Source of the DNA: Escherichia phage Pandora71
Reading direction: 5' to 3' (one strand)
Length of the DNA: 44,696 bases
Sequence record: PV841870.1
Both the position numbers and the translations under genes were made by a program. Below the pieces are notes generated by a model. It made no database searches. It saw only the letters and a list, made by a program, of their open reading frames with translations, and was not told the DNA's origin. This document shows, piece after piece, positions 3,495-4,637 of this stretch. The stretch's first letter is position 1, and each line of letters starts with the position of its first letter.

Positions 3495-4637
3495 ATGCAC
3501 CCGCAAACTAAAATCACCGACGAGCAATTGATTGCCGAGTTGCAATCCGGCACTACCGCGAAAGAGATTGCGAAGAAGTACGGTCTTTCCCTCCGAAATG
3601 TCTACATGCGAAAAGCCCGCCTGTCGAAGAAAGGTATTGGTCACGGTAATGATGCCGTAATCCGTAAGCGCGTTGCCGATGGCTTCGGCGTTAAGCGCGT
3701 ATCGGCCCTGGTGCGCGGCAATGGCGAAGAGGTCATGTCGTGGGTCATCACTGAGCAGGACAAGGAGCGCCAACTCGAAGCCATGCGCGCTGTTGTCGAG
3801 GGTATGAACAGCGAAATCACACCGGCAGCGCCAGTAAACGCCCCGCCAGTACCGATCCAGGCGCTCGACTTGCTCAACCTGTACACCGTGTCAGACTTCC
3901 ACCTGGGCATGTTGGCATGGGGCGAGGAGACTGGCGAAGACTGGGATATGGCGATTGCCGAAGACCTGTTCTACCGCTGGTTTGTCGAAGCCTTCGCCCG
4001 CGCACCGGACGCAGGCACTGCCGTTATCAATATCCTCGGTGATATGGCCCACTTTGATAGCCTCGACGCCGTCACACCAGCAAGCGGTCACGTACTGGAC
4101 GCCGACACACGATACCAGAAGTTGGTCCGCTATATGATTCGTATGGTGCGCAACGTGGTTGACCTGGCGCTGCAAAAACACCACAAAGTAAAACTGCTAA
4201 TCGTCCAGGGTAATCATGACGAGTCGGGCATGATTTGGCTTGCTGAGATGTTCAATACCCTGTATGAGATCGAGCCGCGCGTCGATGTGGACACGTCCCC
4301 GGACGTCTACAAAATGGTGCAGCACGGTAAGACCACGCTATTTTTCCACCACGGGCACAAAGCGCGATTCGATGTTATCGAGCAGGTTATGATCGCTAAA
4401 TTCAGACAGGCTTTCGGGTCGAGCGAATACAGCTACGCGCACATAGGCCACTTGCACCACCAGAAGATTGTAGAATCCCGCAACATGATTGTTGAACAGC
4501 ACCGGACTCTCGCAGCGAAAGACGCCTATGCCAGCCGCGGCGGTTGGATGTCCGGTCGTAGTGCCAACGTCATCACCTATAGCGCCAACTACGGCGAAGT
4601 AGCGCGCTTAACCATTAGCCCGGAAATGTTGAAATGA
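3495..4637 (+). CDS. HTH domain fused to calcineurin-like metallophosphoesterase (380 aa)
   Basis: N-terminal HTH-like segment; phosphoesterase motifs DFH, GDMAH, GNHDE, HHGH, GHLHH in canonical order. Confidence 0.65.
   Translation: MHPQTKITDEQLIAELQSGTTAKEIAKKYGLSLRNVYMRKARLSKKGIGHGNDAVIRKRVADGFGVKRVSALVRGNGEEVMSWVITEQDKERQLEAMRAVVEGMNSEITPAAPVNAPPVPIQALDLLNLYTVSDFHLGMLAWGEETGEDWDMAIAEDLFYRWFVEAFARAPDAGTAVINILGDMAHFDSLDAVTPASGHVLDADTRYQKLVRYMIRMVRNVVDLALQKHHKVKLLIVQGNHDESGMIWLAEMFNTLYEIEPRVDVDTSPDVYKMVQHGKTTLFFHHGHKARFDVIEQVMIAKFRQAFGSSEYSYAHIGHLHHQKIVESRNMIVEQHRTLAAKDAYASRGGWMSGRSANVITYSANYGEVARLTISPEMLK

Follow-up and report, generated by a model that had tools for sequence, protein, structure and literature searches.

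A helix-turn-helix metallophosphoesterase of Escherichia phage Pandora71 from a persistent phage gene family, with a probable role as a stand-alone DNA nuclease

Introduction

Metallophosphoesterases (MPEs) encoded without a Rad50-like partner have been described in several phages. Gp48 of mycobacteriophage A10ZJ24 has phosphodiesterase and DNase activity in vitro and breaks down host DNA in vivo, its MPE motifs being needed (PMC12287305), and A1 of phage T5, a predicted metallophosphatase resembling nucleases of double-strand-break repair and polymerase proofreading subunits, is the one factor that is both needed and enough for degradation of host DNA (bioRxiv 10.64898/2026.04.02.716235). A third protein, Bxb1 gp47, is reported as required for phage DNA replication. 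The gene considered here lies at positions 3495..4637 (+ strand) of a 44,696-nucleotide stretch of DNA from Escherichia phage Pandora71 (PV841870.1), the whole of which is called the window, and encodes a 380-aa protein in which a predicted helix-turn-helix (HTH) precedes a calcineurin-like MPE domain. Like A10ZJ24 gp48, Bxb1 gp47 and T5 A1, the window MPE is solitary, and it is on balance probable that it is a stand-alone two-metal DNA nuclease, which would be held on DNA by its HTH and used for breakdown of host DNA, for processing of phage replication and recombination intermediates, or for both.

The layouts of these proteins differ. Bxb1 gp47 shares its top structural neighbours, Mre11 and DP1, with the window MPE but, at 255 aa, is without an N-terminal extension able to hold an HTH, and T5 A1, at 556 aa, has a layout unlike that of the window MPE. 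No mycobacteriophage homologue of the window MPE was found by tblastn at E 1e-3.

A side observation concerns the Bxb1 RefSeq record (NC_002656, 5876-6788), in which gp46 is named as the recombination directionality factor and gp47 as 'metallo-phosphoesterase'. In the literature gp47 itself is that directionality factor (PMC11795197), and the product label appears to be shifted by one gene.

Gene identity and distribution

The gene and the parts of its product are the following.

3495..4637, + strand: HTH-metallophosphoesterase (MPE) gene, 380 aa, ATG start; PHROG 704 member and T1 gp16 homologue
3519..3629, + strand: predicted N-terminal three-helix HTH, aa 9-45, of LuxR/GerE or sigma-70 region 4 type (Pfam, profile, AlphaFold)
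3681..3812, + strand: beta-hairpin, aa 64-88, with conserved G77 and W83, and helix, aa 90-106 (AlphaFold, conservation)
3855..4634, + strand: calcineurin-like binuclear metallophosphoesterase domain, aa 121-380, motifs I-V intact

An AGGAAG ribosome-binding site stands about 11 nt 5' of the ATG. The profile of PHROG 704, a family named 'DNA repair exonuclease', matches the product at an E-value of 1.2e-159 with 532.6 bits (aa 5-380 against positions 2-390 of 390), and the codon differences from related phages are mostly synonymous, with 51 synonymous and 3 nonsynonymous changes against phage Sponge and 61 and 9 respectively against phage mckay. Given this full-length match and the dominance of synonymous differences, the open reading frame (ORF) is not a chance one. 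The metal site of the window MPE is under strong purifying selection.

PHROG 704 covers T1 gp16 together with homologues from Drexlerviridae, Kagunavirus, Jerseyvirus and Webervirus, and its members have the same architecture as the window MPE (HTH, beta-hairpin, MPE domain), nothing essential being different, so that all belong to one family. Identity to the window MPE is 45% over 377 aa for T1 gp16 and 48% for Era103 gp26. Depositors have named the gene 'calcineurin-like phosphoesterase', 'DNA repair exonuclease', 'winged HTH domain-containing protein', 'HTH luxR-type domain-containing protein' and 'transcriptional regulator'; since both halves of the protein are thereby named, the fusion is already annotated publicly. 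The gene as such is a catalogued, ordinary phage core gene that adds nothing beyond database annotation. The PHROG 704 name 'DNA repair exonuclease' is a remote-homology label.

The window belongs to an E. coli siphophage of the Dhillonvirus type. Across the 4 kb that surround the MPE gene, DNA identity to about 150 E. coli Dhillonvirus phages (including AV129, mckay, Sponge and slur05) is 91-94%, deposited proteins are 99% identical to the window MPE, and a copy with at least 90% aa identity occurs in 154 phage records, the region itself being matched at the DNA level in 156. By tblastn, 2016 phage records out of 50,697 contain a homologue, which places the family in about 4% of sequenced phages, among them Dhillonvirus, Kagunavirus, Jerseyvirus, T1-like Drexlerviridae, Klebsiella siphophages and Vibrio and Pseudomonas phages; further homologues occur in the SP6-like podophage Era103, an Ackermannviridae phage, Campylobacter myophages and N4-like roseophages. 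When proteins clustered at 50% identity were searched exhaustively, 4560 representatives matched at E<=1e-3 and 1109 at E<=1e-30. Within Drexlerviridae the gene is persistent in 508 of 522 genomes (PMC13164509). The MPE gene is thus a persistent core gene and not an accessory one.

Some records matched in these searches carry host names that look doubtful. OQ221563.1 ('Acinetobacter phage NJ01') has 94% DNA identity to the E. coli Dhillonviruses, and several 47-50 kb 'Campylobacter phages', such as MG065641.1 and MG065669.1 ('Campylobacter phage A14a' and 'A123'), hold T1-like copies of the gene; these may be contaminating coliphages.

Catalytic domain and fold

A first-pass annotation, made from the letters of the window alone, had described a 380-aa fusion of an HTH-like segment with a complete set of calcineurin-like motifs, and this description holds, since all five motifs were placed as described (DFH at 134-136, GDMAH at 182-186, GNHDE at 239-243, HHGH at 285-288 and GHLHH at 318-322) and a three-helix HTH was modelled. 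Conservation was followed in an alignment of the window protein with 64 diverse homologues (65 sequences, 32-48% identity). Residues D134, H136, G182, D183, T194, N240, H241, H286, G318 and H321 are invariant, and H186, D188, P195, L201, D202, R206, D242, H285, H288 and H319 are conserved in at least 90% of the sequences; the metal-binding residues all fall in one or the other of these two groups. The predicted binuclear metal site (D134, H136, D183, N240, H286, H319 and H321) is complete and is accompanied by the motif III histidine H241 and by a Mre11-like motif II histidine, H186. A family-specific conserved loop, VTPxSGHxLDADxR (residues 193-206), comes after motif II. Because the five motifs and the beta-sandwich MPE fold are present, membership in the superfamily (PF00149 / PF12850) is settled despite Pfam scores below threshold, and the PHROG 704 family is a divergent one within the calcineurin-like superfamily.

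The branch of the superfamily is beyond sequence methods, as Pfam scores remain sub-threshold, neither a direct search nor a family-profile search of the Protein Data Bank (PDB) gave a useful sequence match, and NCBIfam and PADLOC scans of the window protein returned nothing useful. The designed armadillo-repeat proteins 4rv1 and 4hxt, which came up in the direct PDB search, were set aside as spurious, being repeated matches to aa 67-100 only. An AlphaFold2 model was built on the 65-sequence alignment (mean pLDDT 91.4) and shows an alpha/beta sandwich that begins at about residue 121 and runs on to the C-terminal end. The nucleases, of which the first-pass annotation had named Mre11/SbcD for this fold alongside phosphatases and phosphodiesterases, came nearest in the structure comparison: the proofreading exonuclease DP1 of PolD scored 15.8, Mre11 15.1 and SbcD 15.0, followed by LpxH (13.7), MJ0936 (13.5) and further Mre11/SbcD entries (13.2-13.5), then by Rv0805 (12.2) and GpdQ (12.1), and lastly by the PPP protein phosphatases (about 9). 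With Foldseek the best match was Mre11 (1.7e-8), then DP1, and in a viral structure library the nearest models belonged to uncharacterised phage proteins about 400 aa long, of which several bear the automatic name 'DNA polymerase II small subunit'. The modelled fold thus leans to the nucleases, by a margin over the non-nuclease phosphodiesterases that is modest and is not proof.

The window protein is nevertheless not a bona fide Mre11/SbcD or DP1. It shares the motif II histidine with Mre11/SbcD (GDMAH in the window MPE; GDLFH in Mre11), but identity is only 13-18%, the Mre11/SbcD capping domain is missing from the AlphaFold model, in which the protein ends with the catalytic sandwich, and an N-terminal HTH is present instead. 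To DP1 the identity is 13%, and the DP2 polymerase partner is not encoded with the window MPE. Neither Rad50/SbcC nor DP2 was found among the nine window ORFs of at least 400 aa, all of which match genes annotated in mckay (terminase, portal, tape measure, tail, helicases, DNA polymerase, PD-(D/E)XK nuclease and primase-helicase). Dedicated proofreading is also unlikely as the general function, because T1 carries the gene but is without an annotated DNA polymerase.

N-terminal domain

The HTH is supported moderately in the window protein itself. AlphaFold places its helices at residues 9-17, 22-29 and 33-45 with pLDDT of about 90-94, the window protein has sub-threshold Pfam matches to HTH_28 (E 0.01) and GerE (E 0.024), and the family profile meets GerE in the PDB at E 0.02. 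In several homologues, on the other hand, the N-terminal matches are significant: Sigma70_r4_2 at 1.5e-9, GerE at 2.4e-8, HTH_1 at 4e-6 and HTH_8 at 9e-6. The type of HTH varies among homologues, including Sigma70_r4_2, GerE, LysR-type HTH_1, Fis-type HTH_8 and homeodomain-like HTH_23/28, and the homologue of the Campylobacter phage NCTC12673 (317 aa) is without an HTH and starts at the beta-hairpin. Since the beta-hairpin and its helix are kept in homologues that have no HTH, they are part of the catalytic module and not the 'wing' of the HTH. The variety of HTH types and the homologues with none suggest, furthermore, a constant catalytic module to which the DNA-binding head was added and in which it was exchanged. 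Conservation is strongest in the MPE domain, where identity to the residue of the window protein averages 0.45, versus 0.20 in the first 50 residues, which hold the HTH.

Genomic context in other phages

The neighbours of the MPE gene, read in gene order in representative genomes, are listed below.

T1 and Sfin-1 (Tunavirus): helicase, VRR-NUC, Dam methylase, small ORFs, MPE, (HNH), SH3, holin, endolysin, spanin
Era103 (Autographiviridae): exonuclease, endonuclease VII, MPE, polynucleotide kinase (PNK), kinase, DNA ligase
VAP7 (Ackermannviridae): helicase fragment, MPE, primase
NCTC12673 (Fletchervirus): RusA, DNA ligase, MPE
Vibrio phage 1.186.O: OB-fold protein, MPE
DSS3phi2 (N4-like): dCMP deaminase, thymidylate synthase, MPE
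PAE2 (lambdoid-like): replication protein P, NinB, small ORFs, MPE, further ORFs, then cell-wall hydrolase
JD001 (Jedunavirus): MPE at the end of the primase operon, ahead of terS
SE2 (Jerseyvirus): MPE isolated among tail and methylase genes

As a core gene the MPE usually closes a replication and recombination block, so that a role in DNA metabolism fits better than one in anti-defence. Adjacency to the terminase genes is lineage-specific and not conserved in the family.

The 'polynucleotide kinase' proteins T1 gp64 and Era103 gp27 begin with the HAD-phosphatase motif DxDGT, and the adjacent 'hypothetical' proteins T1 gp62 and Era103 gp28 carry a P-loop, GAPGAGKDT (T1 4948-5478 and 5962-6534; Era103 4321-5396). 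From these motifs each pair looks like a split Pnkp, interrupted by HNH in T1, and it may be the wrong half that is annotated as the kinase.

Proposed function

The mechanism that would best account for these data is the following. The MPE site, of the structural branch of Mre11/SbcD and of the PolD DP1 proofreading exonuclease, would hydrolyse phosphodiester bonds in DNA, and the HTH, whose sequence type varies with the lineage, would hold the enzyme on duplex DNA and thereby make a Rad50/SbcC or DP2 partner unnecessary. In phage DNA metabolism the enzyme would serve for breakdown of host DNA, for trimming of replication and recombination intermediates before packaging, or for both. In the window the gene would be transcribed as a small unit of its own, made up of promoter, 26-codon ORF, MPE, orf70 and terminator, between the lysis and packaging operons. 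A DNA-nuclease role is supported by the intact and selected metal site, the nuclease-like folds, the recurrence of an HTH, the DNA-metabolism context, the core-gene status and the precedents of other solitary MPEs. As for the two functions offered by the first-pass annotation, DNA processing is consequently favoured, by the PolD DP1, Mre11 and SbcD folds, by the replication, recombination and ligase neighbourhoods and by the core-gene status, while degradation of nucleotide second messengers found no support in anything recovered.

Several results weigh against this proposal. The window protein scores below the Pfam gathering cut-offs (22.5 bits versus 27 for Metallophos_2; 19.8 versus 21.5 for Metallophos), its homologue P0127 being one that passes the latter (25.1 versus 21.5). 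The hhalign probability against the window family is 20% for T5 A1 and 4.6% for Bxb1 gp47, values on which orthology with either was rejected; all three studied phage MPEs, A10ZJ24 gp48 included, are related to the window family at the superfamily level only and serve as analogies, not as orthologues. The neighbourhood evidence comes from about ten hand-inspected genomes and no statistical survey, and both in the window and in Jerseyvirus SE2 the gene is adjoined by lysis, packaging or tail genes, not by genes of DNA metabolism. Finally, no biochemical or genetic study of any PHROG 704 member was found in the literature.

A broader proposal is more tentative. The family might form a new class of partner-independent, Mre11/DP1-like nucleases, directed to DNA by interchangeable HTH modules, and might break down the host chromosome or trim concatemers in siphophages of the T1-like, Dhillonvirus, Jerseyvirus and Webervirus groups; phage T1 has classically been known to degrade host DNA, and the gene behind this is not known to be gp16. 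Several groups of enterobacterial siphophages that are very common have the MPE gene among their most persistent genes without an assigned function, and it is present in nearly every Dhillonvirus-like record matched, many such phages being candidates for therapy. Should the protein be a nuclease that degrades host DNA or processes phage DNA, this would bear on the risk of transduction, on phage engineering and on sensing by defence systems that detect degradation of the host genome.

Alternative explanations

The alternative that survives best, although it is unlikely, is end healing, in which the MPE would not degrade polymers but would prepare broken ends of DNA or RNA for ligation or extension, with the activity of a 3'-phosphatase or 2',3'-cyclic phosphodiesterase, like the MPE phosphatase module used by bacterial Pnkp. 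The gene stands directly 5' of the PNK, kinase and ligase set in Era103 and directly 3' of DNA ligase in NCTC12673, and in Drexlerviridae without an SH3 gene the commonest gene directly 3' of the MPE is a polynucleotide kinase or deoxynucleoside monophosphate (dNMP) kinase (PMC13164509). However, a HAD phosphatase (T1 gp64, Era103 gp27) and a P-loop kinase (T1 gp62, Era103 gp28) are already supplied by the PNK-type genes, so that the MPE is not needed for healing in those phages, and in the window phage homologues of PNK, kinase and ligase are all missing, yet its MPE is under strong selection. A PNK/ligase repair cassette was likewise rejected as the general context of the family, as the window is without such genes and the cassette elsewhere already includes the HAD phosphatase.

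Slightly less probable again is a late-gene regulator, in which the HTH would bind operators before the lysis or packaging operons and the MPE domain would serve for sensing or as an accessory enzyme. An HTH of the LuxR/GerE or sigma-70 region 4 type would suit such a protein, as would the 'transcriptional regulator' label given by some depositors and the position of the gene directly before late operons in Drexlerviridae (lysis), Dhillonvirus (terS) and PAE2 (a nin/Q-like position). It is nevertheless the catalytic residues and not the HTH that are invariant, as the mean identities of the two domains show, some homologues (NCTC12673) have no HTH, the HTH types are swapped between lineages, and in Era103, VAP7 and the N4-like phage the gene is embedded in a cluster of DNA-metabolism genes. 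No repeated operator-like motif is on record for it either, though no genome-wide search was aimed at one.

An anti-defence phosphodiesterase, hydrolysing the cyclic nucleotides or oligonucleotides that serve as immune signals in CBASS, Pycsar, Thoeris or type III CRISPR, is improbable. The intact metal site and a generic kinship of fold agree with it, but nuclease-type folds rank higher than the class III cyclic-nucleotide phosphodiesterases and GpdQ (Rv0805, CpdA-like), and a fused DNA-binding HTH is unexpected in an enzyme for small soluble molecules. The solved Rv0805 and GpdQ chains are of the size of an MPE domain (227-295 aa), in contrast to the 380 aa of the window MPE, and neither is known to have a DNA-binding domain. 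Unlike theirs, the family context of the window MPE is DNA metabolism, with DNA-metabolism genes as neighbours, and the gene persists in the core, at a fixed position, and is not a variable accessory. Literature searches found no phage MPE shown to degrade immune signals; the sole 'counter-defence' phage MPE that they returned works by degrading host DNA, and where metallophosphatases are named in the Metis and 'Conserved folds' preprints, their roles are other ones.

For the next alternative the organisation of the locus has to be considered, and its elements are listed here.

3263..3284, + strand: terminator-like hairpin AAGCCCGG-loop-CCGGGCTT with T-run, ending the holin/endolysin unit (pattern scan)
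3293..3322, + strand: sigma-70-like promoter candidate for the MPE unit, TTGACT, 18-nt spacer, CATACT (pattern scan, 9/12 matches)
3353..3433, + strand: 26-codon ORF MARNDIWVLAIWSAAAFIGMVICELL, hydrophobic and transmembrane-like, with its own GAGGAG ribosome-binding site
4634..4846, + strand: orf70, 70-aa helical protein, PHROG 20931, its start overlapping the MPE stop codon (ATGA)
4854..4874, + strand: terminator-like hairpin with T-run, closing the MPE-orf70 unit ahead of terS (pattern scan)
about 4875-4890, + strand: extended -10 TGTTATAAT, directly 3' of the terminator at 4854-4874 and 5' of terS
4865-5515, + strand: terS as the longest ORF, with a TTG start inside the terminator region
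5515-6900: terL

A packaging accessory nuclease, which would work with the terminase in pac cleavage or end processing as some terminase-adjacent HNH proteins do, is very improbable. The first-pass annotation had placed the gene just upstream of the terminase genes, and in the window this is accurate, the MPE being followed by the 70-aa ORF, by terS ending at 5515 and by terL. The MPE gene lies about 230-330 bp 5' of terS, depending on the terS start chosen, in the window and in other Dhillonviruses, it is also 5' of terS in JD001, and an HTH is combined with a nuclease-like domain. The link to packaging that this placement had implied is not supported, however, as the MPE unit has a promoter-like element of its own, a conserved terminator and a separate extended -10 come between it and terS, and in other lineages the gene is mostly not terminase-adjacent, the adjacency being absent in T1/Sfin-1, SE2, Era103, VAP7, NCTC12673, DSS3phi2 and PAE2. 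TerL, moreover, has an RNaseH-like nuclease domain of its own.

The least probable alternative, a Ser/Thr/Tyr protein phosphatase of the lambda type that reprograms host proteins, has in its favour the common superfamily fold and the nin-region position of the gene in the lambdoid-like PAE2, lambda phosphatase being encoded in the nin region, but it is contradicted by motifs I and II, which read SDFHLG and GDMAHFD and not the PPP signatures GDxHG and GDxVDRG, by the lack of any PPP-family match in the Pfam and NCBIfam scans and by the weakest fold match of all.

Conservation of the intergenic elements and neighbouring genes

The elements around the gene were compared between the window, Sponge and mckay, three Dhillonviruses. 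In the hairpin at 3263..3284 the stems are invariant and the loop varies, and in the element at 3293..3322 the TTGACT and CATACT hexamers are invariant and the spacer varies, a promoter function being inferred from this sequence pattern. The hairpin at 4854..4874 is 100% conserved in Sponge and mckay, as is the extended -10 TGTTATAAT, which is without a good -35, was missed for that reason by the consensus scan and is a candidate promoter for the packaging operon. Another hairpin, at about 3441-3468 just 5' of the MPE ribosome-binding site, was discarded, two mckay substitutions falling in different base pairs and not being compensatory. The 26-codon ORF keeps its reading frame in Sponge and mckay, where most of the changes are silent, and is annotated in neither record.

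On the 3' side, orf70 is restricted to the Dhillonvirus group, with no homologue 3' of the MPE in the other lineages examined. A conserved small partner was considered, since ORFs overlapping the MPE stop codon occur in several lineages, but it was rejected as their proteins are not homologous. For terS there are several candidate starts: besides the TTG of the longest ORF, relatives annotate a shorter gene (552-573 bp, with starts near 4943 or 4964), and an in-frame ATG is found at 4940.

The remaining genes of the region are as follows, and a 55-aa ORF lies between the endolysin and MPE genes.

2062-2352 and 2349-2594: two holins
2581-3072: endolysin
6911-8431: portal
8415-9518: head-morphogenesis protein
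9481-9840 and 9713-9952, + strand: overlapping spanin pair, about 7 kb 3' of the holin-holin-endolysin cassette (2062-3072)
9966-10775, - strand: 269-aa ORF, PHROG 1965 (E 1e-59), between the head-morphogenesis and spanin genes and the next structural genes

The spanin pair consists of an Rz-like protein (PHROG 2536, E 2e-36) and an Rz1-like protein with a lipoprotein-type LSAC signal (PHROG 5672, E 2e-25), and its position 3' of the head-morphogenesis gene means that the lysis genes are split between two loci. The 269-aa ORF at 9966-10775 coincides with a local dip in GC content, to 0.50 at 10001-11000.

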